Shown here one piece after another: positions 10,207 through 64,000 of a stretch of 64,000 nucleotides of DNA (the first letter of the stretch is position 1; each line of letters opens with the position of its first letter). The stretch spans positions 64,001 to 128,000 of the IMG/VR virus record IMGVR_UViG_3300025858_000010. One strand, given 5' to 3'. The position numbers and the translations under genes were made by a program. A model generated the notes under the pieces. The model was given only the letters and a program-made list of their open reading frames with translations, searched no databases and was not told the DNA's origin. The stretch is from a virus. Its lineage: Duplodnaviria; Caudoviricetes.

Positions 10207-12504
10207 TTACTTTTCCGTATAAGGATAAACATTTTGAGCGTTTGCTGCAAATCTTTTATTTCCTTCATCGAATTGTATAGAATATTTGCCATCTGGTCTA
10301 ACTCCTATAAATATTCCTTTTTTATTATCATATACAGATTTATCTTTTTTGTATATTATTTTATCTCCTTCTTTAAATTTTGATTCTATTTTTTTAATTT
10401 CGGTTGTTTCACTTCCTTCTTTTTTTTTCATATATGGATTTTTCCAATTATTATCGCCGTTTGTCAAATAATTTTGTGTAGAAACCAAATGAAATGTGTC
10501 AAAATGATCTAATGCGTTTATACCTTGTTGATATTTTTTATCAGTATGAAGAGCACATATCATATTACTTCTATAACTATTTCCCTCTCTCGTTATCCAT
10601 CCTTCGTTAGCTGCATACATTTGAAATAAATCTCTATCTTTGTCATATCTTGTATAAACATAATCCATAAACGTTCCATCTTCAGGAACAGCCAATCTCC
10701 AAACTAAAGCTCTACCTAGAAGTTTTTTCCCATCATCGTTCAATAAAACCAACATTTGAATGACGTCTGGATTATCAACAAACATTTGCATCTCTGGGGC
10801 TTTATTTGTTCCTCTCATACAAGAACTATTTAACATTCCTCCTCCCTGAACGTAATTAGCGCCATTATACCAGTATCGTATATCTTCGCCCGATACAAGT
10901 TTTAATTTATCTGATATTCCTTTTATACACAAATCATAAGTGGCTTTATATGCGTTGGTCAGAGATTCTACATCTTTATCCGTGAGTTTTTCATTTACTA
11001 TTCTAAAAAATTTACCAATTTTCATCATTTGTCTAAATCTGGATTTGAATGGATTTTCTTTATCATCCAATCTTTTAAATTTATCTAATGGGATGTAACT
11101 GATCATTTCGTTTGTATCTGTAATATCGAAATATGATAAATTCATTAATGCAGACTTTATTTTTAAATTTAATCTATATAATATCATTGAAAGTCTATCA
11201 CTCGTTATAAATAACATAATTTCTTTATTATCTAATTTTCTTTTTATATCTTCAGATTCTTCTTTTTTAATTATACTAATATTTGCTCTTGGTAGATTAT
11301 AATAATTCTTATTTTTTCCTTGAACATATAATTGTTGACAGAATTTGATCATAAAATTTATTCCGAAATTATCTCTTGGTTTATTTCCGGCTATATTTAC
11401 AATTTCACCGATTTGACCGTCCATATTATCTAACATGAAATTTTGAGATGATTGAGCTATTATATAATCACCAACTTTATAATCATAATTAAATGATTCT
11501 ATATTATCTTTTAATAATTTTAATTCCAACTCGTTTTTCTTTAATTCTTCTTCTGTAGCACTTCTAATTTTATTTTGTGGCACCACATAACCCATAGGAA
11601 CCCCTATCAAATTATTAATGTCGTATAAATTATTATCAAATCTATTTGTAAATTGAACACTATATCTATTATAGATTCCACGTGATATAACTTCCCTAAT
11701 AATTCCAATATTATTTTTAAAATCGACATTATCATAACGTCCTTCTTCTACTACAATAATATCGTTCAACTGAAATGGTTGACCTATTTTATCCAATTCT
11801 TTTTTTACTTTATCTATTTTCTTTTTAAATTTCTCTATTTCTTCAGGTTCGGCATGTCTCATATTCATTTTATTTATAGTTATACCAGCTCCGTTTTTAG
11901 GAAATCCTTCATTATCACTTTTAAAATTTTTATCGGTTTTATCTAAGAATCCCACCCACCATTGATCTGGGCCTACAGGATAATAAGTAATGGCTATTTC
12001 ATCGTCAATGTTAATTAATTTATTATCATATCCAATTTTAATACTACCTATACCAACTATAACATCACCGATTTTATATTTTGTATTCATCCTTATGTCC
12101 TCGTTCTTCTTATTTTCTTCGTGTTTTTTGATAATTTTTTCAAAATATATTGGATCATTAGAGGCAATATTTTTTAAAGGAATATAAAAACAATGTCCTT
12201 TTTTACCAATATCTTTAAATCCAGCGTGAAATTTTTTATTTGGTTCATCAAATTCAATAAGAAAATTACCATATTCTTTCATATCTATTATTGTTCCCGC
12301 TAAATAATCCAGATTAACACCGTCAACTTCACCGTTGGTCATTATTTTATCACCAATTTTAAGATTTTCTCTTTTAATTTCAGCAATAATATTTGATTCG
12401 GTTTTCTTTTTAAACATCCCTATTTCTTCATTAATATAATTAGTCATGAAACCATTATAATTTTTTATCATTTCGTATTCATTCTTATCATTCTTATTTT
12501 TCAT
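10207..12504 (-). CDS. multidomain protein: tandem SH3/KOW-like repeats plus SCM...GRALVW...FMD domain
   Basis: about five (Y/F/L)K(I/V/E)GD-initiated repeats; YINE leader; first repeat is paralogous to 37890..38237. Confidence 0.6.
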   Translation of the reverse strand: MKNKNDKNEYEMIKNYNGFMTNYINEEIGMFKKKTESNIIAEIKRENLKIGDKIMTNGEVDGVNLDYLAGTIIDMKEYGNFLIEFDEPNKKFHAGFKDIGKKGHCFYIPLKNIASNDPIYFEKIIKKHEENKKNEDIRMNTKYKIGDVIVGIGSIKIGYDNKLINIDDEIAITYYPVGPDQWWVGFLDKTDKNFKSDNEGFPKNGAGITINKMNMRHAEPEEIEKFKKKIDKVKKELDKIGQPFQLNDIIVVEEGRYDNVDFKNNIGIIREVISRGIYNRYSVQFTNRFDNNLYDINNLIGVPMGYVVPQNKIRSATEEELKKNELELKLLKDNIESFNYDYKVGDYIIAQSSQNFMLDNMDGQIGEIVNIAGNKPRDNFGINFMIKFCQQLYVQGKNKNYYNLPRANISIIKKEESEDIKRKLDNKEIMLFITSDRLSMILYRLNLKIKSALMNLSYFDITDTNEMISYIPLDKFKRLDDKENPFKSRFRQMMKIGKFFRIVNEKLTDKDVESLTNAYKATYDLCIKGISDKLKLVSGEDIRYWYNGANYVQGGGMLNSSCMRGTNKAPEMQMFVDNPDVIQMLVLLNDDGKKLLGRALVWRLAVPEDGTFMDYVYTRYDKDRDLFQMYAANEGWITREGNSYRSNMICALHTDKKYQQGINALDHFDTFHLVSTQNYLTNGDNNWKNPYMKKKEGSETTEIKKIESKFKEGDKIIYKKDKSVYDNKKGIFIGVRPDGKYSIQFDEGNKRFAANAQNVYPYTEK

Positions 12505-12591: not shown

Positions 12592-12990
12592 ATGAAAGAT
12601 AAATTGATTTTTAACGATAAAATAGAAATAAGAAAATCGAAGTTACATGGTTGGGGTGTTTTTGCTAAAAGCGATATAAAATCAGGCGAGATTTTAGAAG
12701 AAGATTCTTTTTTAATAATTCCGATGTCACAGAACGAATCATCTTCAATTTTTATAGATTATAGATTCAATTTTCCAAGAACAAATTCTAAATGTCAAGT
12801 AATACCATTTGGTTTTTCTTGTTTATATAATCATTCAGAAAAACCAAACGCAGCCTGGGAAACAAATGATGAAAATAATTTATTTATTTTTTCTGCGATT
12901 AGAGACATTAAAAAGGATGAAGAAATATGTATTTATTATGGGGATATTAATTATTGGAATGAAGGAAGATCTCACACAAAAATAATTTAA
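12592..12990 (+). CDS. SET-domain methyltransferase-like protein
   Basis: HGWGVFA, YNHSEKPN, RDIKKDEEICIYYG. Confidence 0.9.
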   Translation: MKDKLIFNDKIEIRKSKLHGWGVFAKSDIKSGEILEEDSFLIIPMSQNESSSIFIDYRFNFPRTNSKCQVIPFGFSCLYNHSEKPNAAWETNDENNLFIFSAIRDIKKDEEICIYYGDINYWNEGRSHTKII

Positions 12991-13008: not shown

Positions 13009-15030
13009 TTAAATTTCCCAGTTTTCTTCACCATAAGGATCAATATCCATGTGTTTTAATCTATATTCTTCTTTTTTTTGTTTTATTCTTTTTTGTTCTT
13101 CTTCCCATTTTTCAAATTCATCACCGTCAGCTTTTTTTAAATGATCAAAGCTTATATTATATGATGATCTTGTGTGATCACCATATCCAGTATGTAATTG
13201 AACATTGAATCTATTATCAAATTTAACACAAGCTGAAACATCATCATTAATGCGTGTTATAATACCAATTTCACCTTTAAATAAAATATTGTCCATTCTT
13301 CCATTACATACTACCACATCACCAACATTAAAATAGTCTTTATTTTCGTATATTCTGTTTTCTCTTATCAATAATGAGTCGTCATCTTCCCAAGTTTCTT
13401 CCCCATAAGGGTCAACATCCATATGTTTTAATCTCATTTCCTCTCTAATTTTTTTTCTATATTCTATTTTTTCAGGATCGGTTAATTCTAATAAATAATA
13501 ATAAATATAGTAAGAAGAATTCGTAAAATCGATTCTGTCACAATCCCACAAGTGATTATTGAATCTTTCTGGAAATTTAACTGCCAATAATGGAGAATCA
13601 CTCATTGATAGAATAATACCCACTTCACCATTAAAATAAATATCATCCATTTGTCCGTGGCAAATAACGGAATCACCTATTTGAAAATCATTAATTTCAC
13701 TTTCATTTAAATGTTTGTAGTAATTTGAATTGTAGTCCATATCCCAATCTTCTTCACCGTAAGGATCAATATCCATGTATTTTAATCTCATTTCTTCTCG
13801 TTTCTTTCGTAGTTCAGATATCGGTTTTAATATATTTTTAGAAACAATATATGTATATCCAATACTATGAAATTTGACATCATAATGTATTCCTTTTATA
13901 ACAACTCCATTTACAGTAGAAGATGTATTATTTGAGTGTTTATCGATTATTGTGCCTATTTGACCATTTAGATCAAGACCGCTTTGATTTCCTGTACAAA
14001 TCACTTTATCTCCATTTTTAAAATCATAATCATTTTCGAAGTTCTCATTTAACCAATCTTCTTCGCCATAAGGATCAATATCCATATGTTTTAATCTTAA
14101 TTGTTTTAATCTTTCTTCTTTTCGTTTTTGTTCTTTGGGATCTAATAAATCTAAACAATCTTCTGGAAAGTAATATGAAGATTCATTTAAAAAATAATAA
14201 TTATTATCACGTTTTCTAATAGTGTAACTACGACCAATACAGTCTAACATATTCCGATCCCACCTATTTTTAACAACATGATTTTTTAATTTGTCATTAA
14301 CAACAACCCTATCTCCTATGTTAAATTTATGATTCGAATTTTCGTTAACACTTTCACTTAACCAATCTTCTTCACCATAAGGATCAATATCCATATGTTT
14401 TAATCTCCTTTCCTCTCTAATTTTTTTTCTATATTCTATTTTTTCTGGATCAGCCAATTCTAATAAATGATAATCGATATAGTAAGAAGAATTCGTAATA
14501 TCGATTCCGTTACAGTTCCATAAATGGTTATCAAATCTTTCTGGAAATTTAACTGAAGCATTGAAATGACGCAATGATATAATAATACCTATTTCACCTT
14601 TAAAATAGATATCATCCATTTGTCCGTTACAAATAACAGTATCACCTATTTGAAAATCTTCTATTTTACCTTCATTTAAATAGTGCATTGAATTGTAATC
14701 TTGATCAATCCAGTCTTCTTCACCATAAGGATCAATATCCATATGTTTTAATTTTACTTCTTCTTTTTTAATTTTTGATTCAATTTCTTTGTTTAAATTA
14801 AATAATTTTATTTCATCTTCTACGAACCATATGTTACCACAAAAATATTCAATGACTCTATAATCCGGTAATAAAAAGTTAACTAAACTAACTAAATAAT
14901 AATTTACACCATCGTGTGTATTTATTGTTTTAATTACACCAATTTTATCTACAAGATTTTGTCTTCTATGTCCTTTTTTCACTATAACGACATCGCCAAC
15001 TTTAAAATAATTTGAAAACTTTTTTATCAT
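13009..15030 (-). CDS. six-module SH3/KOW-like + DPYGEEDW polyprotein
   Basis: six FxxGDxV domains, each followed by a charged helix and (H/Y)MD(I/V)DPYGEE(D/T/N)W. Confidence 0.8.
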   Translation of the reverse strand: MIKKFSNYFKVGDVVIVKKGHRRQNLVDKIGVIKTINTHDGVNYYLVSLVNFLLPDYRVIEYFCGNIWFVEDEIKLFNLNKEIESKIKKEEVKLKHMDIDPYGEEDWIDQDYNSMHYLNEGKIEDFQIGDTVICNGQMDDIYFKGEIGIIISLRHFNASVKFPERFDNHLWNCNGIDITNSSYYIDYHLLELADPEKIEYRKKIREERRLKHMDIDPYGEEDWLSESVNENSNHKFNIGDRVVVNDKLKNHVVKNRWDRNMLDCIGRSYTIRKRDNNYYFLNESSYYFPEDCLDLLDPKEQKRKEERLKQLRLKHMDIDPYGEEDWLNENFENDYDFKNGDKVICTGNQSGLDLNGQIGTIIDKHSNNTSSTVNGVVIKGIHYDVKFHSIGYTYIVSKNILKPISELRKKREEMRLKYMDIDPYGEEDWDMDYNSNYYKHLNESEINDFQIGDSVICHGQMDDIYFNGEVGIILSMSDSPLLAVKFPERFNNHLWDCDRIDFTNSSYYIYYYLLELTDPEKIEYRKKIREEMRLKHMDVDPYGEETWEDDDSLLIRENRIYENKDYFNVGDVVVCNGRMDNILFKGEIGIITRINDDVSACVKFDNRFNVQLHTGYGDHTRSSYNISFDHLKKADGDEFEKWEEEQKRIKQKKEEYRLKHMDIDPYGEENWEI

Positions 15031-15074
15031 AATAGTAATATATATAAAAATTAAAATTTAAAAACACACTTATT

Positions 15075-16139
15075 ATGGAAAAATCTGAAATAAAATTAAT
15101 AAACGGTGATATATCAACATTAATAGAAGATCAATATACTAAAATATTAAGAAGCGAAAATTATAACTTTATATTTAATAAACAAACTGGATTTTTCGTT
15201 CGTTGGGGCAAAACAAAGGAAGATGACGGTGACATAAATCTGGGTCTTCCAGAATTAGTAGACATGGAAATATCCACATCATGTCACGGTATAGATAAAC
15301 CTTGTAAATTTTGTTACAAATCAAATACTCCCAAAGGTGATTATATGTCATTTGAAACTTTTAAGAAAATATTTTCAAAACTCCCACCGAGTATAACACA
15401 ATTGGCTGCCGGTATAGGAGATATTGACGGAAATCCCGATATGTGGAAAATATTTAACTATTGTAGGGAAAATGGAGTTATTCCAAATGTGACTATTAAT
15501 GGAGCTAGAATGACGGATGAATTATTTGATAGATTAGCCTTAATGATGGGAGCTGTTGCTGTATCTTTATATGATAAGGATTTAACTTATACCGCTGTTG
15601 AAGAATTGACAAGAAGAGGATTAAAACAAACAAATATACATTTCCTGTTAAGCGAAGAAACATATGATAAAGCTATAGAAACATTGAATGATATTAAAAT
15701 TGATGATAGATTAAAACATCTTAATGCTATAGTTTTTTTATCTCTTAAAACAAAAGGAAATGCTAAAAACGGTTTCACTCAATTAGGTCAAGAAAAATTC
15801 AATAATATTGTTAAATATTCACTCGATAATAATATATCGATTGGTTTTGATAGTTGTGGAAGTACTAAGTTTTTAAAATCGATTGAAGGACATAACAATT
15901 TTAAACAAATGGAAATGTTAGTAGAAAAATGTGAAGCTTCTCTTTATTCAAGTTATATATCAGTTAGTGGACATTATTACCCTTGTAGTTTTTGTGACGG
16001 TGTAGAAAATTGGGAAGAAGGCATAGACGTTTTAAATTGTGAAGATTTTTTAAAGGATGTTTGGTTTAACGAAAAAACATTAAATTTCAAAAAGAAATTA
16101 TTAAATTGTAATCGAGATTGTCCAGTTTACATAATTTAA
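15075..16139 (+). CDS. radical SAM / SPASM-domain protein
   Basis: CHGIDKPCKFCYK cluster motif; C-terminal CEA...G.YYPCSF...CPVY. Confidence 0.8.
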   Translation: MEKSEIKLINGDISTLIEDQYTKILRSENYNFIFNKQTGFFVRWGKTKEDDGDINLGLPELVDMEISTSCHGIDKPCKFCYKSNTPKGDYMSFETFKKIFSKLPPSITQLAAGIGDIDGNPDMWKIFNYCRENGVIPNVTINGARMTDELFDRLALMMGAVAVSLYDKDLTYTAVEELTRRGLKQTNIHFLLSEETYDKAIETLNDIKIDDRLKHLNAIVFLSLKTKGNAKNGFTQLGQEKFNNIVKYSLDNNISIGFDSCGSTKFLKSIEGHNNFKQMEMLVEKCEASLYSSYISVSGHYYPCSFCDGVENWEEGIDVLNCEDFLKDVWFNEKTLNFKKKLLNCNRDCPVYII

Positions 16140-23810: not shown

Positions 23811-25256
23811 ATGATAAAAAAATTTAAATTATTTGAAACCAATAATAATAAAATAGAAGCAGCTATTGATTTTATCAGAAATGTTATAAAGGATACAGAA
23901 TGGGAAGGTAAAGTATTTCTTGCTGGAGGTGCTGTAAGAGATGAAGTGATGGGCAGAACGCCAAAAGATATAGATCTTCTTATTAATGCACCTAACGGAG
24001 GCATTTTATTTGCAGATTGGATAACTAAAAAATTGGGTATATATGTAGATGGTAAAAATCCAGTAGTTTATCCTAGATTCGGCACAGCTATGTTCACCCT
24101 TAGAAAAATAAAACATGATGGAGTAGATATTTCTTTTGTTGAAATTGAATGTGTTATGCCAAGAAAAGAAGAATATCTAAAAGGAAATAGAAAACCCATT
24201 GTTTCACAAGGAACACTCAAAGATGATGTCAATAGAAGAGATTTTACAATAAATAGTCTTCTAAAAGATTTATCAAGCGGCGAAATATTAGATCTAACAG
24301 GAATGGGTAAAAATGATATAAGAGACGGTATAGTGAGAACTCCTTTAAATCCGGATGTGATTTTTGATGAAGATCCTCTCAGAATGCTTAGAGCAATTAG
24401 AATAATTGTTAAATATAACTGGACATTACCTTTATTCATGATAAGAAGTTTGAAAAAGAACGCCAAAAAACTTCAATATATTTCACAGGAAAGAATACAG
24501 AGCGAATTAAATAAAATGTTACTAACAGACAATCCAGACAAGGCAATTAGATTGTTGCAAATATTTGGACTTTCTAAATATATTTTTCCAGAATTAGATA
24601 AACTCATCGGTATGAAACAAAATAAACATCATCAGTACGATGCTATGCGTCATTCATTAGAGGTATTAAAGAATACGCCAAAGGACTTAATAACTAGATT
24701 ATCTGGATTACTACATGATATAGGAAAATCCAAGACAAGAGAGATAATAGATCACGAAGTGCATTTTTATGATCATGAAGAAGTAGGGGCTTATATGGCT
24801 CGTGATATATTGCATAGACTAAGATATCCAAGAGAAATTTGTGATGCGGTTTTTCTTATCATTAATAATCACATGAGAACTAAACATTCTGGCGATGAAG
24901 GTGAAATAAGTGATAGAACACTAAGAAAACTAAAAATGGATTTAGGCCCCCATTTAGAAAGAACATTAGATTTAATTCACGCTGATAACATATCACATTC
25001 TGCTCAATCTAATATGCCAAATCAAATATCTAATATAAGAAGAAGATTTAAAGAGTTAGAAGAAAAAGATAAAGGAATAAATATTAAACCGCCATTAAAT
25101 GGTAATGATATAATGGAAATACTAGGAATTACAAAGGGACATCATCCAGTGATAGGAAGATTGTTAGCACTTCTTAAAGATAAATATTTAGATGATCCGA
25201 CTATGACAAGAGATGAAGCCATAGATATAGTTAAAAACAATTTCATTAGATCATAA
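23811..25256 (+). CDS. cca: CCA-adding tRNA nucleotidyltransferase with HD domain
   Basis: GGAVRD, DIDL, RRDFTIN, EDPLRMLRA, ERI..E, LHDIGK. Confidence 0.88.
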   Translation: MIKKFKLFETNNNKIEAAIDFIRNVIKDTEWEGKVFLAGGAVRDEVMGRTPKDIDLLINAPNGGILFADWITKKLGIYVDGKNPVVYPRFGTAMFTLRKIKHDGVDISFVEIECVMPRKEEYLKGNRKPIVSQGTLKDDVNRRDFTINSLLKDLSSGEILDLTGMGKNDIRDGIVRTPLNPDVIFDEDPLRMLRAIRIIVKYNWTLPLFMIRSLKKNAKKLQYISQERIQSELNKMLLTDNPDKAIRLLQIFGLSKYIFPELDKLIGMKQNKHHQYDAMRHSLEVLKNTPKDLITRLSGLLHDIGKSKTREIIDHEVHFYDHEEVGAYMARDILHRLRYPREICDAVFLIINNHMRTKHSGDEGEISDRTLRKLKMDLGPHLERTLDLIHADNISHSAQSNMPNQISNIRRRFKELEEKDKGINIKPPLNGNDIMEILGITKGHHPVIGRLLALLKDKYLDDPTMTRDEAIDIVKNNFIRS

Positions 25257-41857: not shown

Positions 41858-42157
41858 TTATTCCCATTCTTCTTCACCGTAAGGATCTATATCTTTATAT
41901 TTTTCAGATTTAATCCTTTGGTTCTCTTGAAATTCTTCTTTAGTTTTAGATAGAGAAATTTCCCATATATAACTTAACTGAACTGTATTTTTATTCAATG
42001 ATTCTAAATCATATTTCCACATATTTTGATCATTTGAACAATAATAATTTTTTATCACATAATAACCGTGTGCATTTCTATGCATACCATGATAATATAC
42101 TACATCACCGATTTTATATTTTGATTTATTTTTATTAAATTGTACAAATGTTTTCAT
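41858..42157 (-). CDS. single SH3/KOW-like domain + DPYGEEEW
   Basis: MKTFVQFN..YKIGDVV...KDIDPYGEEEWE. Confidence 0.75.
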   Translation of the reverse strand: MKTFVQFNKNKSKYKIGDVVYYHGMHRNAHGYYVIKNYYCSNDQNMWKYDLESLNKNTVQLSYIWEISLSKTKEEFQENQRIKSEKYKDIDPYGEEEWE

Positions 42158-47687: not shown

Positions 47688-49205
47688 ATGATAGTTGATT
47701 ACGAATATTCTCAGCAAATTTTAAAAGTATCCTATATTGGTGATAATGGTCAAATTAAAATGAAACATTATAGATGGCCAAATCCACAAAAATATGTAGT
47801 TTGCTCGGATGATGATAGAGATAAAAGTGGTAAATATACAACTTGGGATGGTATGGCTTGCAAGTTAACATATACTCGAATGCCAGATCGATATTCAGTT
47901 TATGATTATATTGATAATTTACCACAAGAAGAACAAGATGTTCTTTTTAAATACGTAGAGCCCGAGATTTTTTTTGTTGATATTGAAAATGAAATTTTAG
48001 ATAAAAGACCTCAACCAGAACTAGCAGAAAGTGCTATACAATCTATATCTATTGTGGTTAGAAATAAAGCTCTTGTTATGGGATTAAATGATTTATCAAA
48101 GGAACAAGAAGCATCTATTAGAGAAGATATAAATAATTATTTCGTAAAATTTAATGCGAATTATGATTTTAAATTCATTAAATATCGAAATGAATACGAG
48201 ATGCTATTGAACTTTTTTGAAAAGTATGTTCCAAAAATGCCAGTTATAACTGGTTGGAATTTTACTGAATATGATTGGGTATTTCTCGTTAATAGAGCTA
48301 GAAAAATCGGAGTAGATCCAACATCAGCGTCATATACTAAAATATTAAGACAACCATTTAAAAGAGATAATAAAAATGGTAGACAAAAACAATCATATTG
48401 TGAACAACCAGCTCATAGATTAATTATTGATTATATGGAGCTCTATGAAAAATGGAACTCTACAATTAAAGTTAAAGAATCAAATTCACTAGACTTCGTT
48501 TCCGATGGAATTCTTGGTATTAAAAAAGTCAATTATGAAGGATCTCTTAAAACACTAGTCGTAAACGATTACAAAAAGTTTATATTTTATAATGCAGTAG
48601 ATTCAATTCTAGTTCAGAAAATACACGAAAAAACAAAATGGATTGATATTCTTTATGGAATTGCCACCTTATCTCGAATTAAAATCCTAGACGCTTATTC
48701 AACTCTTCCAGTTACAGAAGGCATATTGAGAAGAAAATTAAAAAAAGAAAGAAATGTTATTCTATGTAAATTGGATAGAGATTTCTCAGATAATAATACA
48801 ATAATGGAATCAGAGAAAACCGTTAAAGGAGGATGGGTCAAAGAACCTATAAAAGGAATGGCATTATGGACTGCTTGCTATGATTTCTCGTCCCTTTATC
48901 CAACGTGTATGAGGATGTTTAATATTTCGGCAGATTCTTATAAAGGTATTTTGTCTCCGGGTAAAGATTTTGCAATCTTTAATGGACATAGGGTTGATTT
49001 AGATTCTAATGATATTAAATTATTAAATGGTTCTGTTTTTAAAAATGAGGTCGGTGTAGTTAATCAAGTGATGACAGATATTTTTGCTGACAGAAAGAAA
49101 TATAAGGGATTTATGATGAAAGAACACGATGAATTAGAGTCATATAAAAGAGAGCTTAGAAGTGCTGAAGATGAGCTTTTGTTGGAATTAGAACATATTG
49201 ATTAA
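47688..49205 (+). CDS. family B DNA polymerase, N-terminal part (exonuclease + motif A)
   Basis: VDIE, ITGWNFTEYD, YNAVD, GGWVKEP, YDFSSLYP; lacks KxxxNSxYG and YGDTDS. Confidence 0.85.
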   Translation: MIVDYEYSQQILKVSYIGDNGQIKMKHYRWPNPQKYVVCSDDDRDKSGKYTTWDGMACKLTYTRMPDRYSVYDYIDNLPQEEQDVLFKYVEPEIFFVDIENEILDKRPQPELAESAIQSISIVVRNKALVMGLNDLSKEQEASIREDINNYFVKFNANYDFKFIKYRNEYEMLLNFFEKYVPKMPVITGWNFTEYDWVFLVNRARKIGVDPTSASYTKILRQPFKRDNKNGRQKQSYCEQPAHRLIIDYMELYEKWNSTIKVKESNSLDFVSDGILGIKKVNYEGSLKTLVVNDYKKFIFYNAVDSILVQKIHEKTKWIDILYGIATLSRIKILDAYSTLPVTEGILRRKLKKERNVILCKLDRDFSDNNTIMESEKTVKGGWVKEPIKGMALWTACYDFSSLYPTCMRMFNISADSYKGILSPGKDFAIFNGHRVDLDSNDIKLLNGSVFKNEVGVVNQVMTDIFADRKKYKGFMMKEHDELESYKRELRSAEDELLLELEHID

Positions 49206-49219
49206 AAATATTCTTTTAA

Positions 49220-50989
49220 ATGATATTAACTAAAAATTCAAATGTTACTATAACTTCGAGAAATATGGGTTATTATATTAATTACTTTAATGATATTAAA
49301 ATAAATGATGTAATAAACGTTGATATAAATATTTTACATAAAGGAAGTAATTTAAAGATTAATGTATGTTGTGATAATTGTGGACAAGAAAAGGAAGTGT
49401 CTTATGTCAAGTATAATAATTATATAAAGGATGATGGTAAATATTACTGTAAAGATTGTAAATGGATAAAATATAAAGAAACAAATATAAAAAGATACGG
49501 AGTAACAAATCCATTAAAAAAAATGGAACTAAAAGAAAAAATAAAAAAATCTCTTATAGATAAATATGGTGTTGATAATCCAATGAAAGATAAAAATATA
49601 AAAGAAAAAGTAAAAAATACAATAAATGAAAAATATGGAGTTGACAACGTTTTTCAAAATGATGAAATAAAAGAAAAAATAAAAAATACGAATTTATTAA
49701 AATATGGGATTGAAAGTCATAATAAAAATGAAAAAATTAAAGAACATAAAAAAAATACATATTTAAAAAATTTTGGATATGAAAATGTTTTTTCATCTCC
49801 TGAAATAATAGATAAAATTAAAGAAATATTAATAGATAAATATGGTGTTGATAATATTTTTAAAAATGGTATAATTAGAGATAAATTTATAAATGAAAAC
49901 AAAATAAAATGGTTTAATGAAATTAAAAATAAATATAAAAATTTAAATTTTATTAATGCAGATTTTGTTAAAAAAGAATTTCAAATTAATTGTGATAAAG
50001 GGCATACTTTCAATATAACTTTTAATTTATTTTATAACAGAAATAGAGAAAATTGCAAAACTGAAATTTGTACTATTTGCAATCCAATAGATAAACAAGA
50101 GTCCGGTTTGGAAATTCAAATTAGAGATTTTATAAAAGAAAATTATGATGGTATAATAGAATTAAACAATAATATTATTATAAATCCATATGAGATAGAT
50201 ATTTATTTACCAGAATTAAAAATTGGATTTGAATTCAATGGTCTTTATTGGCATTCGGAGATTTATAAAGACAAAAATTATCATATAAATAAAACAAATA
50301 TATCGGAATCAAAAGAAATAAAATTAATTCAAATATATGAAGATGATTGGTTATATAAACAAGATATAGTTAAATCCAGAATACTAAATTTGCTAGGCAA
50401 ATCTAATAAGATAATGGCTAGAAAAACTGAAATTAAAGAATTTAATGACACTAAAATGATAAAAGATTTCTTGGATAAAAATCATATTCAAGGACACGTT
50501 GGATCAAAAATTAAAATAGGACTTTTTTATGAAAATAAATTGGTTTCTTTAATGACATTTGGTGATAAAAGAAAATTAATGGGTCAGAAATCAGTAGTCG
50601 GAACTTATGAAATGTTAAGATTTTGCAATATATTAAATACTAATGTTATCGGCGGAGCTAGTCGATTATTTAAATATTTCGTCGATAAATATAATCCCAA
50701 TGTTGTTATAAGTTACGCTGATCGCAGTTGGTCTAATGGCAATCTTTATAAAAAAATAGGATTTGATTTTATAAGAAAAACAGAACCTAATTATTATTAT
50801 ATAATAAACGGAAAAAGAAAACATAGATTTGTATTCAGAAAAGATAAATTAATTAAAGATGGTGCCGACCCATCAAAAACAGAACATGAAATAATGTTAG
50901 AAAAAAATATTTATAGAATATATGATTCTGGTCATTTAAAATTTATTTGGAAAAATAATAAAAAAACAAACCTCACAGAAAAAAATTGA
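49220..50989 (+). CDS. KYGV-repeat PD-(D/E)XK endonuclease with C-terminal GNAT/Mom-like domain
   Basis: CDNCG, KYGVDNP repeats, EIDIYLPELKIGFEFNGLYWH, RFCN..GGAS, SYADRSWS. Confidence 0.7.
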   Translation: MILTKNSNVTITSRNMGYYINYFNDIKINDVINVDINILHKGSNLKINVCCDNCGQEKEVSYVKYNNYIKDDGKYYCKDCKWIKYKETNIKRYGVTNPLKKMELKEKIKKSLIDKYGVDNPMKDKNIKEKVKNTINEKYGVDNVFQNDEIKEKIKNTNLLKYGIESHNKNEKIKEHKKNTYLKNFGYENVFSSPEIIDKIKEILIDKYGVDNIFKNGIIRDKFINENKIKWFNEIKNKYKNLNFINADFVKKEFQINCDKGHTFNITFNLFYNRNRENCKTEICTICNPIDKQESGLEIQIRDFIKENYDGIIELNNNIIINPYEIDIYLPELKIGFEFNGLYWHSEIYKDKNYHINKTNISESKEIKLIQIYEDDWLYKQDIVKSRILNLLGKSNKIMARKTEIKEFNDTKMIKDFLDKNHIQGHVGSKIKIGLFYENKLVSLMTFGDKRKLMGQKSVVGTYEMLRFCNILNTNVIGGASRLFKYFVDKYNPNVVISYADRSWSNGNLYKKIGFDFIRKTEPNYYYIINGKRKHRFVFRKDKLIKDGADPSKTEHEIMLEKNIYRIYDSGHLKFIWKNNKKTNLTEKN

Positions 50990-51015
50990 CATTTTAAAAT
51001 TAATATATATGTAAG

Positions 51016-51927
51016 ATGTTTTTTTGGTGGATTTTTCCGCCCAAAAAAAAAATGCTTATGAAGAAACAAATTTTTAACCAAGATGTTATTGGTCCTCAAG
51101 ACTTTGATGAATTAGTCAATAAAATGAGGACTTTTTTTATGCAAAAAAATTATAAAGAAGTTTATCCTCAACCAATAAGATCTATTATGGCTGCCTGTGA
51201 GGATCCGAGAACTTTAAGATCTTTTACTTTCGATGGAAATACATGGCCTTTGAGTCAAACTAATCAAATGAATTTGGAAATGATATTACTAACTATGCCA
51301 GAGGAAGCAGATGGTATATATTGTATGACAACATCTTATAGAGATGAACCTAATCCTATACCTGGTAGACATGATAAAATATTTCCAATGTGGGAGTTTG
51401 AACATAAAGGAAACTTTCAAGATCTTATAAAAACATTAAGTGAATTGAGTGTTCATCTTGGTTTTGTGAAAAAAACTGAAGATATTCCAATATTCACATA
51501 TGATGAATTGTGTGAACATTATGGTGTTGATAATTTAGAATCCGATCACGAAATATTAATATGGAAAGAATATGGTGACGTTGTTGGAATAACGTATTTT
51601 CCAGAAAGGACTCATCCATTTTGGAATATGAAACAAGATGGATTAAATAAAAAAGGTGAAAGATTATTTAATAAAACAGATTTTATTATTTGTGGTCAAG
51701 AAACATTTGGATCGGCTGAAAGATCTGTTGATGTAGAACAAATGAGAAATAGTTTCCATAGTATATCAGATGGAATGTATGCCAAGTTATTATATAACGA
51801 ATTTGGTAAAGAAAGAGTTATCAATGAATTAGAATCTTATTTATCATTACCAATGATAAATAGATATGGTGCTGGTATTGGTTTTACAAGATTATATAGA
51901 AATATGAAATTAAAAGGACTAATTTAA
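51016..51927 (+). CDS. class II aaRS catalytic-domain-only protein (Asn/Asp/Lys subclass)
   Basis: motif 2 SYRDE...RH...F, GSAER, motif 3 GAGIGFTRL; no anticodon-binding domain. Confidence 0.8.
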   Translation: MFFWWIFPPKKKMLMKKQIFNQDVIGPQDFDELVNKMRTFFMQKNYKEVYPQPIRSIMAACEDPRTLRSFTFDGNTWPLSQTNQMNLEMILLTMPEEADGIYCMTTSYRDEPNPIPGRHDKIFPMWEFEHKGNFQDLIKTLSELSVHLGFVKKTEDIPIFTYDELCEHYGVDNLESDHEILIWKEYGDVVGITYFPERTHPFWNMKQDGLNKKGERLFNKTDFIICGQETFGSAERSVDVEQMRNSFHSISDGMYAKLLYNEFGKERVINELESYLSLPMINRYGAGIGFTRLYRNMKLKGLI

Positions 51928-52030
51928 TTAGTCCTTTTAATCCTTATCTTGAATACATTTTTTTTTGAATACTTGTATATTTTGATTTAATTGTTTTTTA
52001 TTTAAAATTTTTTTATGTATCTTTGTATAA

Positions 52031-52558
52031 ATGAATAAAGAATTCCATAATAATCAACAAGTCTATATTTTTTTAGATCTAGACGGTGTTTTAGTGACCA
52101 CCAATCAGTATTATACTAATAGGAAAAAATGGCATCCCATGTATGATTGCTACAGGTTTGATGAAAAATGTGTAAAGGTTTTTAATCAAATTCTTGATGA
52201 AGCAATGCTATCAAAAAAACCAATCGTTGTATTATCAAGTGATTGGGGTAAGAAATATTCATTGGAAGTAATGAATAGAATATTTGAGTGGAATAATGTT
52301 AAATGCACTATAACAGATATAACTCCGAATCTTTGGGGAATTGAATTTATGAAAGTTCAAGAACTGGAAGCTTGTCGTGCGTCTGAAATCATAAAATATG
52401 TGTGTGATAACAATGTACAGAAATTCATAGTCATTGATGATTACGATTTGAATCCTTGGTTTGAAGCGAATTTTATTCACATAAAACGCGCTAATGAGGG
52501 AATTAAACAATTGGGCATAAAAGAAAAAATCATTAAATTTTTAAAAGAACACTGTTAA
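52031..52558 (+). CDS. HAD-family phosphatase (RNA-repair HAD type)
   Basis: FLDLDGVL, VLSSDW, R..EI, VIDD. Confidence 0.75.
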   Translation: MNKEFHNNQQVYIFLDLDGVLVTTNQYYTNRKKWHPMYDCYRFDEKCVKVFNQILDEAMLSKKPIVVLSSDWGKKYSLEVMNRIFEWNNVKCTITDITPNLWGIEFMKVQELEACRASEIIKYVCDNNVQKFIVIDDYDLNPWFEANFIHIKRANEGIKQLGIKEKIIKFLKEHC

Positions 52559-52662
52559 AAATAAATTTTCATTGGATTATTTTAATATATAATGAAAATT
52601 AAAAATTAAAAAGATTTATTTTTTTTTTTAATTTTTAATAATAATTTTTTATATATAATAAT

Positions 52663-54063
52663 ATGAAAATATTAAGATATAATAATTTTTTTAAGGAAAA
52701 TGTACAACCTTTTACTGGTGATGAAGAAGTTCAACTACAACCAGAAGAAGATAAATTGAACATTGATCAATATAACCAATTGAGATTATGGGATATTGAT
52801 GATGATAGCTTTAAGACAGAAGATGAAAAGAAAAGGGATTTGAAAGTAAAAAAAATTCATGATGATTTAATTAAAAAAATAAAAAAAGAACCAAAGGTTG
52901 AAGAAGTAAGACAGCCAACACCTATAGAAATTGGTGATTGGGTAGAAATTTTTGATTTTAACGATTTGAATAAAAATCAAAAAAAGTTTTTAAAATCCAA
53001 ACCCTATCATTACGTCAAAGCAGTCACTAATAGTAAAGGCAATATATATGAAGTCGGTGATCCACATATTGATATTGGATATAAAATTCCATTTAAAATG
53101 TGTAGATTTAAAAAAACAGAAAAACCGGATAGTAAATATAAAGTACTTTTTATTCAATTCGATTTGGCTATAGATACACATGGTGAAAAAGATGTCTATA
53201 ATTTTTTTAGAGGATTTGAAAATATGTCCGGATTATTTCCAGTTTTATTTTATGAAAAAATGAAAGATGATGTTTTTGTTAATTTTGTTAATTATGATGA
53301 TATTTATAAAATAAAAAAAGATTATTATGCACATGGTATTTGTTTGAAAGATTACAATTTTGTATTTTTTGGACACGTATCAAATTTCACATCTTTGTGT
53401 AAAATGATTGTTAATTATCTAAATAGAAATGATATTCCTTATTTAAAATATGGTACTTATAGTGAATATGATAATAAGGCTTATGAATTTGATCTTTTAG
53501 AAAATTTAGGATATCCATATATACCATCAATAATGACTACTAAATTAACAAATAAAATAATCAGTATAGTTGAAAATGACTTTGGATTCCCAGTTATTGT
53601 CAAAGATGTTAAAGCAAATAGAGGTACTGGCGTTTTCTTGATCAAAGATTTGAAAAACTTAATCAAAACTTTTTCACATAGATATTCTTCCAATTTGATG
53701 TTGATACAAAAATTCATACCAAACGATGGGGATTATAGGGTTATAACAATAAAAAATAAAGTTGAATTGATAATAAAGAAAAAAAGAATAGACGAAAAAG
53801 AATTTAGATCTAATGTGGCTAGAGGGGCAAAGGCTATAAAAGGAAAATTACCATCTAATATCATTAAAATGTGTGAAGATGTATCTAAACATTTAGACAG
53901 TGATATTTTAGGATTTGACATAATACAGAATAAAAATACAAAGGAATATTACATAATGGAGGTTAATTCGGCTTCACATTTCTCTACCTTTTCTGTTATA
54001 TCGGGTGTCAATATTCCAGAAATAATAGTTAATTATATTATTAAAAAAATCAAAAATAATTAA
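52663..54063 (+). CDS. RimK-like ATP-grasp ligase with N-terminal extension
   Basis: FPVIVK...GTGVFL, IQKFI...DYRV, FRSNVARG, GFDII, MEVNS. Confidence 0.85.
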   Translation: MKILRYNNFFKENVQPFTGDEEVQLQPEEDKLNIDQYNQLRLWDIDDDSFKTEDEKKRDLKVKKIHDDLIKKIKKEPKVEEVRQPTPIEIGDWVEIFDFNDLNKNQKKFLKSKPYHYVKAVTNSKGNIYEVGDPHIDIGYKIPFKMCRFKKTEKPDSKYKVLFIQFDLAIDTHGEKDVYNFFRGFENMSGLFPVLFYEKMKDDVFVNFVNYDDIYKIKKDYYAHGICLKDYNFVFFGHVSNFTSLCKMIVNYLNRNDIPYLKYGTYSEYDNKAYEFDLLENLGYPYIPSIMTTKLTNKIISIVENDFGFPVIVKDVKANRGTGVFLIKDLKNLIKTFSHRYSSNLMLIQKFIPNDGDYRVITIKNKVELIIKKKRIDEKEFRSNVARGAKAIKGKLPSNIIKMCEDVSKHLDSDILGFDIIQNKNTKEYYIMEVNSASHFSTFSVISGVNIPEIIVNYIIKKIKNN

Positions 54064-54064
54064 A

Positions 54065-55078
54065 ATGTATTCATTTAAAAAATATAAAAATTTTTTAAAC
54101 GAAAATAATTATTTGACATTTGATGATCTCGTTTTTAAATATCATCCACAACTGAATACAGAATTTGATAAAATAAACTTCAATAACGGATATGTTCTAT
54201 CGGTATTTAGACTCGATGATAAATATCTACCGGGAAGTGAATATAGTATGTTCTATTTTGATCATGAGAAAAGTAAATACATTCTACTATTTTCATCTAA
54301 AGAAGAAGTTAGTGAAAAAATGATTGAACTTCAAAAAAGAAAAGAAAAAAAGAGAATATTTACTACCGAAGATCCTTATGGCGAAGAAGATTGGAATAAC
54401 GAAAATATAGTTCAGAAAAAAAAGATAAAATATAAAAATTTTTTAAACGAAAATAATTATTTGACATTTGATGATCTCGTTTTTAAAGATCATCCATATG
54501 TAGACGATGTAAAAATTGCCAAAATGGATTTCGATAATGGTTATAGTGTATCTTTATTATTTGGTGAAAAAGTGTATTCAAACTCTAAAGACACATACGA
54601 AATGATGTGTTTTGATTACAGAGGAGAAAATATTTACGATGATGTGTTACCATATTTAACTAAAGATCAAGTTAGTGAAAAAATGATTGAACTTCAAAAA
54701 AGAAAAGAAAAAAAGAGAATATTTACTGCCGAAGATCCTTATGGCGAAGAAGATTGGAATGATGATGATAATATTTCAGAAAATTTAGATCAAAAAGAAA
54801 AAATCACCACGGTACAATTATGGAATGAATATTTACGCAAAGGCAGGAAATATGTGATGGATAAATTAAGATATAGAGATATTGAATTTGTAACAAAATC
54901 AAAAAAAGTTAAAAAATACAAAGGTAAAATATGTGGTTTTGTTCCTGCTTTTTTGTATTCAGATAAAGAAATAATAATTCTTTTCGATACCAAAGAATAT
55001 GGAGTTTTAAAAGTTAATGATAAATATCCAATTATTCTAAATCCAAAAAGTGAATACGAGGACGAAGACGATGAATAA
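54065..55078 (+). CDS. two-module DPYGEEDW protein plus C-terminal domain
   Basis: duplicated KYKNFLNENNYLTFDDLVFK...EDPYGEEDWN. Confidence 0.75.
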   Translation: MYSFKKYKNFLNENNYLTFDDLVFKYHPQLNTEFDKINFNNGYVLSVFRLDDKYLPGSEYSMFYFDHEKSKYILLFSSKEEVSEKMIELQKRKEKKRIFTTEDPYGEEDWNNENIVQKKKIKYKNFLNENNYLTFDDLVFKDHPYVDDVKIAKMDFDNGYSVSLLFGEKVYSNSKDTYEMMCFDYRGENIYDDVLPYLTKDQVSEKMIELQKRKEKKRIFTAEDPYGEEDWNDDDNISENLDQKEKITTVQLWNEYLRKGRKYVMDKLRYRDIEFVTKSKKVKKYKGKICGFVPAFLYSDKEIIILFDTKEYGVLKVNDKYPIILNPKSEYEDEDDE

Positions 55079-55859
55079 ACTTAAAAGTTATATAAATGAT
55101 CTTTTGAAAAATAAAGTTCAACTAGATAAAGATATCTATTCTGATAAAAATGAAACAATTGAAAAAAAAGAAAATCTTAAAATTTTTATTAATTTTGTGA
55201 ATGAAATTTATAAAAATGAAAAAATATCTGTTTTCACTTTTCCCTTTCTTGAAAATATAGACGATTTTATTATAAAACCTGAAAATATTTATTTAATTAA
55301 ACAGATGTTTAAAATAATTCAAAAACAGGCGTTTTATTTTGATATAATCACATCCGGCGATTTTGGAAAATGGATATATAAATTAATCGAAGATAAAGTT
55401 ATAAAATTCAACAACAATTTGGTCGTGGTCAGTGGACAAATTAGAAAAGTTAAAGAAGATGAAAATAATAAAATTGAAATTCTGAAAAAAAGATTTAATG
55501 ATATATCATATAAAGATTTTATATTTATAGACGATAGTTTTGTATCCGGCGGAACTAGAGATAAAATAGATGAATTTTTAAGAAAAAAATTTAATTCCAG
55601 AATAATAAAAACATTCGCTTTCTATACACACTATCACGAAGACGATGACGATGTTCATTCTGAATATTGCTACGCTGATGAAAATAAAGAAAAAATTATA
55701 CCTATTCATAAGCACATGGATTTCATTAACAGTATAGATTTAAAATCATATGAAGATATAATATATTCTAATATTAAAAATGGACAAATATCAGAAATGA
55801 GAGATCTTTTTAGGATTATAAAAAGAATTAGTGAAGCAGAAAAAAAACATAATTTTTAA
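55050..55859 (+). CDS. phosphoribosyltransferase-like protein
   Basis: FIFIDDSFVSGGT PRPP-binding motif. Confidence 0.6.
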   Translation: MNTRTKTMNKLKSYINDLLKNKVQLDKDIYSDKNETIEKKENLKIFINFVNEIYKNEKISVFTFPFLENIDDFIIKPENIYLIKQMFKIIQKQAFYFDIITSGDFGKWIYKLIEDKVIKFNNNLVVVSGQIRKVKEDENNKIEILKKRFNDISYKDFIFIDDSFVSGGTRDKIDEFLRKKFNSRIIKTFAFYTHYHEDDDDVHSEYCYADENKEKIIPIHKHMDFINSIDLKSYEDIIYSNIKNGQISEMRDLFRIIKRISEAEKKHNF

Positions 55860-55904
55860 TTTTAAATATTTTTTGAAAAATAAATTGTAACTTATTTGTA
55901 ATAT

Positions 55905-56159
55905 GTGTGTCTAATTTTAAAAATAAATTATATGAAGAAAACAATTATTACAATAAGTTTAATGTTTATTTTTAATATCACAATAGCCGACATTAAAGAC
56001 TCTAAAATAGAAAATATTCATTTCCAAAAAAATGAAGTTAAAATTAAAGATATAATACCCATTACTCCTAATGAAGCAACTTTTGAAGATTTTTATGACA
56101 CCATTAATATTGAAAATTTAAAGCCAATAACACCAAGAGAAGCTGATTTTAATGAATAA
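55905..56159 (+). CDS. small secreted protein
   Basis: signal peptide; twice-repeated PITP.EA.F motif. Confidence 0.55.
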   Translation: MCLILKINYMKKTIITISLMFIFNITIADIKDSKIENIHFQKNEVKIKDIIPITPNEATFEDFYDTINIENLKPITPREADFNE

Positions 56160-57040: not shown

Positions 57041-57102
57041 GTTGTTATATATTATTTTTGCAAATATAAAAAAAATTATTAATTTTGTCAAAATTAAATT
57101 AA

Positions 57103-57537: not shown

Positions 57538-57560
57538 ATTTATTTCTTTTTGTATAATCT

Positions 57561-61542: not shown

Positions 61543-63300
61543 TTAGATAAGAACACCTTCAGAATCAGTAACCTTAATAGCCATGAATTGTTTTTCTGGG
61601 AAGAATCCAATATCAGCAACAGCATATCTGCTTCTGATCAACATTCTTGGTGCCCACGTCGCTTCGGAAATCAAGGAAATTGATTGTGCCATTAAATAAG
61701 GGATAAAGAGAAGACCTGGTTGATCAACACTATTTTTTCTACCTAAATAGATATAGTTATCATCCCATCTCATGTATGGATCAACGTAGATTGCGATATT
61801 ACCAACATTACCCATTGGATAAAGTTGACCGTTGGTATTTAATTTGCCAGCGTTAACTGGATTAATAGTATAACCAGCGATATCTTGAATAACGGAAGCT
61901 AAGTTACCGTTTGTTACTAAATATTGAGCTGGTCCAATTCTACCATCAGTAGCGATGAAGTTAGAAGCGTTATTGATTTTGGCAATAAGTTTTCTTTGGA
62001 TTGAGTGAGTTGTTTCACCCATTCCAGTATTCAAAGCTGCTACGTATGTATCAACATTGAGGTCGAATTTTGATGTTACACCATCTGCCATTTTTGGAGC
62101 AGTATAAGATGTTCTATTCTTGAGAGCTAAGTTTCTAACTTTACCGACGATTTCTTTAGAAATAACTTGGGTAAGTTCGTTAATTAAAACTCCTTCGAGT
62201 TTTTGAACAATATCCATACCGGTTGCGGCTTTGATATCTTCAATTTGAGTTCTTTTCAATGTTGATGAAATTTCAACATCTCCTACTTGTACTGATTTTG
62301 TGAATACATCAGGACCAATAACACCAGGATAAGTTTTTTCATCTTGGAATCTTGACATAGGACCTTCCCAGCCATTTTCCATATTAGATGTCCAACCAGC
62401 TGAAAATCCAGGTAGGTGATCTTCCAATAGTGAAATCAATTCAATTGTCCATGTACCAGCTGTTAAACCTGTAGTAGTTGTACCGCTTATAGTACCAAAA
62501 TCATTAGTTGATAAGTAGGTAGTAATAGCGCCAGTTTGTGGGAATGTATTCATTCCAGTTTGCCATGGGTAATTTGCAGCCCCTGTAGAATCTTGTGGTA
62601 CCAAAGAACCAACTGAGAAACCAGCTTGTCTGTAGCATCTAAACATTGGATAACCATCAATTCTGGAAAATCCTAAAAATTCCAACCAATCGGTATAAGA
62701 ACCAACTGCTGGTCCATTTGTCATTGTAGCTACTGCTCCACCAGCTCCAATATGAACCCAAGTTCTCTTGGATAATCCACCAACTCTTTCTTGAATACTC
62801 AATAAAGAAAGTTGTAATTGAAGAGCTTGTTTTAAAAGTAAATCTTCTGCTGTATCATTACCTTTAACTTTAAAAACCAAAGGTCTTTGATTAGCGTCAG
62901 CTGTTTCGCGAATACCGTCAGCATAAGCGTTATCATATTTGAAATCAACAAATAAGAGTTCGATTCTTGGAGAAGCTGTTGGTTTAACACCAACCAAATC
63001 CAAACCAATCGTTTGAGCTGCGATCTTCATTGCGACAGGGAGAAGATTTTGTGCAACGTCACCACTACCGATTACTCCATCACCTTGCCAAGTGGCACCA
63101 GGAACTGTAGAGATAACGGGAGCTAGAACTTTGCCCATACCATTTTGATTCAATGTTGCATAACCAACATTTTCATTCATTTGATGCATTTCTGCATATT
63201 CGGACATCCATGCTCTTTTATCATCATCAACAACTTTAAGAGCGTCTAAGATAGGAGCCCATTTTTTTTGTGCTTTCACACCGTCTACTATAAAATTCAT
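61543..63300 (-). CDS. major capsid protein (T4 gp23-like)
   Basis: KKWAPIL, IAAQTIG.DLVGVKP, L.NEL.Q.I, IYVDPY, GL.FIPY, P....RSRYA. Confidence 0.85.
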   Translation of the reverse strand: MNFIVDGVKAQKKWAPILDALKVVDDDKRAWMSEYAEMHQMNENVGYATLNQNGMGKVLAPVISTVPGATWQGDGVIGSGDVAQNLLPVAMKIAAQTIGLDLVGVKPTASPRIELLFVDFKYDNAYADGIRETADANQRPLVFKVKGNDTAEDLLLKQALQLQLSLLSIQERVGGLSKRTWVHIGAGGAVATMTNGPAVGSYTDWLEFLGFSRIDGYPMFRCYRQAGFSVGSLVPQDSTGAANYPWQTGMNTFPQTGAITTYLSTNDFGTISGTTTTGLTAGTWTIELISLLEDHLPGFSAGWTSNMENGWEGPMSRFQDEKTYPGVIGPDVFTKSVQVGDVEISSTLKRTQIEDIKAATGMDIVQKLEGVLINELTQVISKEIVGKVRNLALKNRTSYTAPKMADGVTSKFDLNVDTYVAALNTGMGETTHSIQRKLIAKINNASNFIATDGRIGPAQYLVTNGNLASVIQDIAGYTINPVNAGKLNTNGQLYPMGNVGNIAIYVDPYMRWDDNYIYLGRKNSVDQPGLLFIPYLMAQSISLISEATWAPRMLIRSRYAVADIGFFPEKQFMAIKVTDSEGVLI

Positions 63301-63378: not shown

Positions 63379-64000
63379 TTATCTTTGTAATCTTTTTAAA
63401 TATGCTTCTAATTGATTTTCAGATAACTTTGTATTATCAAAACTATTATTTTTTTCTGTTAACAGTGTAACTTTACCTGAACTTTTTTTAGCATATTCGT
63501 GGAGGTTTCTACTATTCCAGAAACTTTCCATTTTATCCTCAGTAAGGTTTGTATAAAATTGTGCACTACTTATAATACTTCCTTGAACTTCTGGACGTAA
63601 ACTTTCCCAAATTGGTCTAAGATCGTTTGGGATATTGTCGATCAATTTGTCATTAAAGCTTCTTACGGCTGAAGTTAGAGCTTTAGCCATTATTGTTAAA
63701 ACTTCATTTTCTGTTGTATAACCATTACTTTCGTTCATTGCAACGATTACTTTTTCTTTATCTGATTGAGAAAGGTTATAGTATGCTGCCTTTTTCTTTT
63801 CAGTTAAGAAAAGTAAGAAATGAGGTTCTTTATCTTCTGAAGCCTTGCGTTTTTTGGATTCATTGATTTGCTTTAACACTAATTTCTTTAATGTATTTTC
63901 TGAATCATAAATTTTATCACCTATGATTGATAATCTATTTTCTTGAATTTCTTGAACTTCACCGGTATCTGATAATTTAACTACAGCAATTCCATTGTCA
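63379..64000 (-). CDS. prohead core/scaffold (or protease C-terminus), partial
   Basis: frame is open to the window edge; directly upstream of the capsid gene; several (I/L/M)xE sites. Confidence 0.55.
   Translation of the reverse strand, partial: DNGIAVVKLSDTGEVQEIQENRLSIIGDKIYDSENTLKKLVLKQINESKKRKASEDKEPHFLLFLTEKKKAAYYNLSQSDKEKVIVAMNESNGYTTENEVLTIMAKALTSAVRSFNDKLIDNIPNDLRPIWESLRPEVQGSIISSAQFYTNLTEDKMESFWNSRNLHEYAKKSSGKVTLLTEKNNSFDNTKLSENQLEAYLKRLQR

Follow-up and report, generated by a model that had tools for sequence, protein, structure and literature searches.

The closest known counterpart of the system reported here is found in phage T4, whose internal proteins IPI, IPII, IPIII and Alt carry a capsid targeting sequence (CTS) and are processed by the prohead protease gp21. 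The T4 CTS reads MKTYQEFIAE (PMC8442874); its residues 4 and 7 govern targeting, its residues 8 and 10 govern processing, and a CTS without the acidic residue at the cut still targets (PMC9026906). Asp at the last position of the T4 CTS prevents processing and leaves targeting intact. The prohead proteases of T4, phiKZ, 201phi2-1 and SPN3US cut after Glu, and several of them autocleave (PMC5694885, PMC9026906). In this study, we analysed an open reading frame (ORF) at 13009..15030 on the minus strand of a window of 64,000 nucleotides (nt) of phage DNA, which comprises bases 64001-128000 of the IMG/VR record IMGVR_UViG_3300025858_000010 (243,112 bp, 26% G+C). Judging from the sequences of its gp23-like capsid gene, gp20-like portal and protease-scaffold gene, the uncultured phage is a T4-like huge phage. 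The ORF encodes six paralogous modules in one chain, and the initial annotation proposed that this chain is matured in the head into six small tagged proteins. We estimate the probability that the ORF encodes a polyprotein loaded in the capsid and cut in this way at about 0.5.

The locus resembles the T4 system in several respects. The protease of the phage is of the gp21 type and its capsid protein of the gp23 type, and the predicted cut follows Glu; the leaders of the stand-alone single modules have the order aromatic-x-x-aromatic-hydrophobic-x-Glu of the T4 CTS; and the putative cargo, like the T4 internal proteins, is diverse and non-essential. It differs from T4 in that six putative cargo units lie in one polypeptide, with leader remnants between them that appear fit for processing only, and in that the first leader has no Glu. 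Furthermore, each unit here has a second, C-terminal peptide, DPYGEExW (hereafter the tag), and the motif favours N at P2 and N, S or G at P1'.

The next closest systems are the processed head and ejection proteins of phiKZ, 201phi2-1 and SPN3US, in which cleavage occurs at S/A/G-x-E or A-x-E; in SPN3US, processing affects eight of ~50 head proteins, and the protease cleaves its own C-terminus (PMC5694885). Single proteins of those phages lose long propeptides, and no report of a stepwise release of repeated small modules from one chain was found. The protease of the phage studied here is fused to a scaffold with ~14 eleven-residue repeats. The polyvalent proteins of phages and conjugative elements (Iyer et al. 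2017, PMC5512222) are likewise long, composed of many modules and shuffled between relatives, and they are predicted to be packaged, delivered with the DNA and processed. However, they combine effector enzymes of different kinds, and an embedded metallopeptidase is proposed to process them (PMC5512222), whereas the six-module ORF is built of paralogous barrels, has no peptidase domain and carries the motif of the prohead protease at its joints. We found no published description of cargo modules chained together through prohead-protease sites. The gpO protein of phage P2 is a protease-scaffold fusion, and the 808-residue protein of the phage studied here similarly joins a prohead protease domain to scaffold-like helical repeats, the family being in this case S77/gp21-like.

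Architecture and predicted fold of the six-module protein

The ORF is intact and encodes a 78-kDa protein of 673 residues. Splitting and aligning the modules gave the arrangement described in the initial annotation, with an FxxGDxV domain, a charged helix, DPYGEExW and a short linker following each other. Namely, F/Y-x-(I/V/N)-G-D-x-V lies close to the start of every module, a K/R/E-rich stretch ending RLKHMD(I/V) comes next, and the tag follows. The tags end at residues 107, 223, 326, 429, 547 and 671; the modules thus measure 103-124 residues. The modules, the linkers and a related single gene are located as follows.

14710..15030, minus strand: module 1 (residues 1-107); N-terminus MIKKFSNYF, which resembles a CTS-type leader
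14671..14709, minus strand: linker 1 (residues 108-120), ending YLNE/G; candidate cut after E120; aligns with the stand-alone leaders
14362..14670, minus strand: module 2 (residues 121-223); predicted SH3-like barrel, helix of ~20 residues, and tag
14341..14361, minus strand: linker 2 (residues 224-230), LSE/SVNE/N; candidate cuts after E226 and E230
14053..14340, minus strand: module 3 (residues 231-326), from the module alignment
14044..14052, minus strand: linker 3 (residues 327-329), W-LNE/N; candidate cut after E329
13744..14043, minus strand: module 4 (residues 330-429), from the module alignment
13702..13743, minus strand: linker 4 (residues 430-443), ending HLNE/S; candidate cut after E443
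13390..13701, minus strand: module 5 (residues 444-547), the closest paralogue of module 2
13345..13389, minus strand: linker 5 (residues 548-562), LIRE/NRIYE/N; candidate cuts after E557 and E562
13018..13344, minus strand: module 6 (residues 563-671), bearing the terminal tag; W-E-I are the last residues of the protein; the same module occurs in protein P0049 of another phage
41858..42157, minus strand: stand-alone single module of 99 residues with a C-terminal tag, 24-33% identical to the six modules

The last gene had been described beforehand as one such module standing alone, which the alignment bore out, and the linker ends YLNE, SVNE, WLNE, HLNE and LIRE/IYE were reread as they had been written. 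In full, linkers 1-5 read ..HYLNE/G, ..SVNE/N, (W)LNE/N, ..HLNE/S and ..LIRE/NRIYE/N, where the slash marks the candidate cut. All five have a hydrophobic residue, any residue and Glu, then N, S or G; four of them contain a motif of the type hydrophobic-N-E/(N or S), and the fifth has IRE/N and IYE/N. The pattern [LIVMF]xE[SNG] is present in 8 copies in the 673-residue protein, 7 of which fall within 78 linker residues, with at least one in each linker. Neither 20,000 shuffles of the whole protein nor 20,000 shuffles within the linkers gave a single match to this placement of sites in five linkers, but the repeats and their sites share ancestry and are not independent trials, so that the shuffle statistics overstate independence.

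Modules 2 and 5, which the initial annotation called near-duplicates at the DNA level, are indeed the closest pair, with 75% protein identity; at 84% of DNA positions (290/345) and with no identical stretch longer than 37 nt they are not near-identical, and that wording was somewhat too strong. The other pairs of modules are only 26-50% identical.

The codons of the tag vary synonymously (CCT/CCA/CCG, TAT/TAC, GGT/GGC/GGG, GAA/GAG), indicating that selection acts on the tag peptide. The same variation speaks against the tag being kept as DNA, for example as a recombination site. About 30 other ORFs bear the tag at an N-terminal, internal or C-terminal position, and many tag carriers have no barrel. 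A literature search with the string DPYGEE found nothing relevant.

The fold was predicted with AlphaFold2 on a 45-sequence alignment for residues 108-230, which comprise linker 1, module 2 and linker 2. The model has a mean pLDDT (predicted local distance difference test score) of 82.5 and consists of a barrel with values above 90, a helix of ~20 residues and a tag of low confidence. Its strands lie at residues 24-85 and form a small five-stranded SH3-like barrel. Linker 1 with its YLNE has a pLDDT of 54-66 next to the barrel, and the candidate site therein apparently lies in a flexible, low-confidence segment of a confident model. Among the structure matches, CAP-Gly, KOW, Tudor and PsaE domains were tied at Z 7-8.7, with a root-mean-square deviation (rmsd) of 1.7-2.5 over 54-60 residues; the CAP-Gly matches were 7owc (Z 8.7) and 3tq7 (Z 8.2, rmsd 1.7 over 58 residues). 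With Foldseek, phage proteins annotated as 'SH3-like domain' matched at E 2e-4 to 1e-3. A Pfam scan of the six-module ORF gave only a weak match to SH3_13 and no peptidase or enzyme domain. On this model, the fold of the module is named an SH3-like barrel, a match that says nothing on function.

The prohead protease, its expected cut motif and the leaders

The linkers had been compared in the initial annotation with the sites of T4 gp21. This comparison is apt, as an S77-like protease gene stands beside a gp23-like capsid gene and the linker motif is the motif kept in ~60 relatives. The features concerned are the following.

63379..64000, minus strand: 3' part, within the window, of the prohead protease-scaffold gene (808 residues; genome 127379-129805 = L005:1379-3805, minus strand)
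61543..63300, minus strand: major capsid protein, T4 gp23-like (phrog_138; gp23 matches in the PDB at E 6e-5)
codons 63169-63180, minus strand: candidate maturation site of the capsid protein, ..EYAEMHQMNE/NVGY; motif kept in at least 60 related capsid proteins

The 808-residue ORF adjoins the capsid gene. Its N-terminal domain matches PF03420 (Peptidase_S77) at E 6e-5, below the Pfam cut-off, and the protease domain used as a 37-sequence profile had T4 gp21 (5jbl, E 0.007) as its sole match in the whole PDB. Neither the catalytic His in GEFDHP nor the catalytic Ser in VSSRAAG varies among related protease-scaffold proteins. From these comparisons, we conclude that the phage encodes a T4 gp21-type (S77) prohead protease fused to a scaffold. 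The remainder of the protein is helical, with the tandem eleven-residue repeats YSEYIAENVDKSI each containing I/V-A-E, which suggests a scaffold built for chopping into short peptides.

For the cut motif, 66 related loci were fetched, the capsid proteins of which are 45-85% identical. More than 60 of these proteins keep ..EYAEMHx[MLVI]NE/N[VIL][GAS]Y, just upstream of a G/A-Y stretch that matches the start of mature T4 gp23 in a weak N-terminal alignment. The related protease-scaffold proteins have hydrophobic-NE[SNQ] at about residue 17-20 and an invariant N171-E172-S173 (motif at ~170-176) at the end of the protease domain, where it aligns with 'ITES' of T4 gp21; more copies of hydrophobic-NE are found in the scaffold part at about residues 273, 470, 650-700 and 780. 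Since the motif is kept in related capsid and protease-scaffold proteins, the protease of this clade most likely cuts hydrophobic-N-E/(N or S). The tripeptide NES is rare in this genome, with 29 copies among 73.5 thousand residues, and the pattern [LIVMFT]NE[SNG] is most frequent in two ORFs, the protease-scaffold ORF (6 copies) and the six-module ORF (5 copies).

The stand-alone modules begin with leaders of 9-12 residues, such as MIKKFDNFLNE/G, MKSYINFVNE/A and MITKYKLFE/N, and their spacing is that of MKTYQEFIAE. In 65 leaders, taken from 161 homologues, position -6 is aromatic in 49% and position -3 in 48%; position -2 is hydrophobic, position 0 is Glu, and S, N or G comes next. When 45 sequences were aligned, the linkers of the six-module protein shared columns with these leaders, by which the linkers are identified as internalised copies of T4-CTS-like leaders. 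Over 128 junctions, the processing positions are kept, and the only frequent upstream aromatic is the W of the tag itself. That the junctions keep the processing positions but mostly not the targeting aromatics is expected if one targeting signal serves the chain and every joint is cut.

The whole genome was also scanned with the pattern [FYW]xx[FYW][LIVM]xE or [FYW]x[LIVM][FYW]E. A T4-CTS-like leader begins 36 of the 270 ORFs, an enrichment of 7-12-fold at N-termini. One of these ORFs, at 23811-25256 (plus strand) of the window, is a tRNA nucleotidyltransferase with the leader MIKKFKLFE/T, and its sequence is such that it could be a packaged and injected enzyme.

Relatives of the chain and the weighing of explanations

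The module profile matched 206 proteins among 1.84 billion representatives. They range from single modules of 88-144 residues to chains that reach 12 tags and a length of 1537 residues, and the domains between the tags are often unrelated to one another. A word-index search with module 6 gave no match, and the sole tblastn match among GenBank phages was a weak one to a 735-kb metagenomic phage. After 151 internal tags in 44 homologues, [LIVMFT]xE[SNG] is found within 15 residues in 54%, versus 6% of control windows (approximately nine-fold), and NE[SNG] in 34% versus 2.4% of controls. Naturally C-terminal tags end 1-4 residues past the W, and a cut at the junction Glu would leave ends much like these natural ones. 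In P0048, a fragment of an ortholog, the flanking residues are changed and LSE is lost, while LNE/G and VNE/N (SVNE/N) are kept.

The modules also occur in other combinations. In the related phages L082 and L094, the same modules are tandem separate genes, each with its own leader. A 537-residue paralogue in the present genome (229155-230768, minus strand; L010/L011) bears two tags; the second module of this paralogue and module 6 share 62% identity. In P0049, module 6 is joined to a different first module, that of the 537-residue paralogue; this protein is a recombinant, from which it follows that modules are exchanged at the tag or the junction. The junction ENLKTFEEF of P0059 is an internal leader with Leu replacing Met. 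No ortholog of the six-module gene was found in IMG/VR (searched by a degenerate DNA pattern) or in JGI metagenomes. Because of the tandem separate genes, the recombinant P0049, the P0059 junction and the absence of the gene from L086 and five related records (see below), we regard it as a recent, dispensable fusion of cassettes and an accessory insertion.

Among the tandem arrangements, L094:398-3131 (plus strand) holds four leader-plus-barrel genes. The last three end in DPxDxNWWFxNSEKKPxKK, not DPYGEExW, and the first ends in a looser variant (..DDQWWFQNSKIAKK..). From its sequence, DPxDxNWWFxNSEKKPxKK may be an alternative tag.

Maturation in the head, as put forward in the initial annotation, is favoured by the motif kept at the expected protease substrates, by its enrichment after internal tags and by the homology of linkers and leaders. 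In the proposed course of events, genes for single modules, each with a leader, an SH3-like barrel, a basic helix and DPYGEExW, would have fused in frame to produce the six-module chain. The putative cargo chain would be made together with the head genes and would enter the prohead through its T4-CTS-like N-terminus, the tags or both. The gp21-type protease would then cut after the linker Glu residues (E120, E226/E230, E329, E443, E557/E562) and release six proteins of ~100-120 residues, with the tag near each new C-terminus as in the stand-alone tagged proteins. The products would remain in the head and probably be ejected with the DNA like the T4 internal proteins.

Several observations, besides the shared ancestry of the sites, weigh against this course of events, and they are why the proposal stands only in part. 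The N-terminus MIKKFSNYF carries the aromatics F5 and Y8, as a CTS-type leader does, but it has no Glu and runs straight into the barrel (..NYFKVGD), so that it is not itself a cleavable CTS. The eighth match to [LIVMF]xE[SNG] (FLNE/S, E283) lies inside the barrel of module 3. About a third to half of the homologue junctions have no clear site, and in a relative of 732 residues one junction passes from the tag directly into the next barrel, which means that internal tags can exist without a cut. The capsid site used for the motif rests on the weak alignment and on the cut of T4 gp23 after Glu65. The gene sits outside the head cluster, and its neighbours are enzymes or non-structural genes rather than structural ones; in the close relative L086, the syntenic locus has the SET and radical-SAM genes directly side by side, without the six-module gene, and no ortholog was found in five related records. 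Finally, the word upstream of the ORF, TTATATATA, is one mismatch off the promoter-like TAATATATA. The flanking features are these.

12592-12990, plus strand: SET-domain gene, flanking the six-module ORF
15075-16139, plus strand: radical-SAM/SPASM gene, flanking it on the other side
15039..15047, minus strand: TTATATATA, at -17 to -9 of the six-module start codon, a weak indication

Some of these points fit an uncut multivalent protein, in which six tags and barrels would form an adaptor, decoy or scaffold for a reader of DPYGEExW and the motifs at the joints would be relics of leaders. The junctions are clearly leader-derived, as ENLKTFEEF in P0059 demonstrates, some junctions in relatives lack a site, the gene is outside the head cluster, and the ~30 other ORFs with the tag at varied positions imply that it works without a nearby cut. 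We consider this a serious but doubtful alternative: except for the pair 2 and 5 the modules have diverged to 26-50% identity, yet the processing positions persist in all five linkers, in contrast to the decayed targeting aromatics; P0048 alters the flanks yet retains LNE/G and VNE/N; and a nine-fold enrichment over 151 junctions is hard to attribute to relics alone. The enzyme neighbours and the missing cleavable N-terminal CTS would also agree with cuts made outside the capsid, or by another host or phage protease, with the modules acting in the cytoplasm of the producing cell instead of being injected. We consider this very unlikely, as the linker motif coincides with the motif at the borders of the capsid protein and the protease, the substrates of T4 gp21 named in reviews are prohead components (PMC9026906, PMC8442874), and none of eight scanned ORFs had a Pfam peptidase match.

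A further explanation concerns the barrels themselves, which might read the acidic-aromatic tag in the manner of CAP-Gly domains, in which case the chain, or the products cut from it, would bind one another head to tail or collect the other tagged proteins. CAP-Gly domains bind C-terminal EEY/F; the tag ends EE-x-W near the C-terminus, and the top structure matches include the CAP-Gly entries named above, tied with KOW and Tudor. However, Z 7-8 is typical of any small barrel, the GKNDG motif of CAP-Gly was not seen in the module alignments, and many tag carriers have no barrel, which makes this very unlikely. The chain might also be cargo and organiser at once: after the cut by the head protease, its CAP-Gly-like barrels would both read and carry DPYGEExW and would polymerise or cross-link the ~30 other tagged proteins into an ordered cargo body, either within the capsid or within a newly infected cell. 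We hold this combination to be unlikely too; if it were true, cutting one chain would provide all its pieces in a fixed 1:1 ratio.

If maturation of the chain in the head is true, the T4 rule that the leader loads and the protease releases would extend from single internal proteins to modular polyproteins, and hydrophobic-N-E/(N or S) would become a sequence rule by which capsid cargo could be predicted across a large, uncultured clade of huge phages. The T4-like leader on ~13% of the ORFs suggests that a large share of the gene products may be delivered with the DNA. With joints that are points of module swapping between relatives, such a design would explain the renewal of an injected repertoire, and it could guide the loading of several proteins into capsids at a fixed ratio.

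Genome setting and neighbouring genes

The gp20-like portal gene and the 808-residue protease-scaffold gene, the latter except for its 3' part, lie just beyond the end of the window. TAATATATA is found upstream of both. This word has 83 copies on both strands and lies within 60 nt upstream of 49 ORFs, mostly at -14 to -17 or -28 to -33; it is likely a promoter core. The leader-bearing ORFs are enriched for an upstream TAATATATA (odds ratio 3.6, p 0.002). One copy, in the 44-nt gap at 15031-15074, faces the radical-SAM gene. Meanwhile, the T4 late-promoter word TATAAATA was found upstream of only 12 ORFs, none of them tagged.

Beyond the SET-domain gene lies an ORF of 765 residues (10207-12504, minus strand) with several SH3-like FxIGDxV modules and no tags; its C-terminal domain is shared with the ORF L005:13140-14099. 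Its real start is probably an internal Met (MIKNYNGFMTNYINE), because the ortholog in L086 begins MIKNYNSFLNE/A.

At 47688-61388, large homing-endonuclease ORFs (49220-50989 and 59595-61388) come after a DNA polymerase ORF, and the ORF at 57561-59534 combines a homing endonuclease with a Mom-like domain. This arrangement suggests a polymerase gene interrupted by mobile elements.

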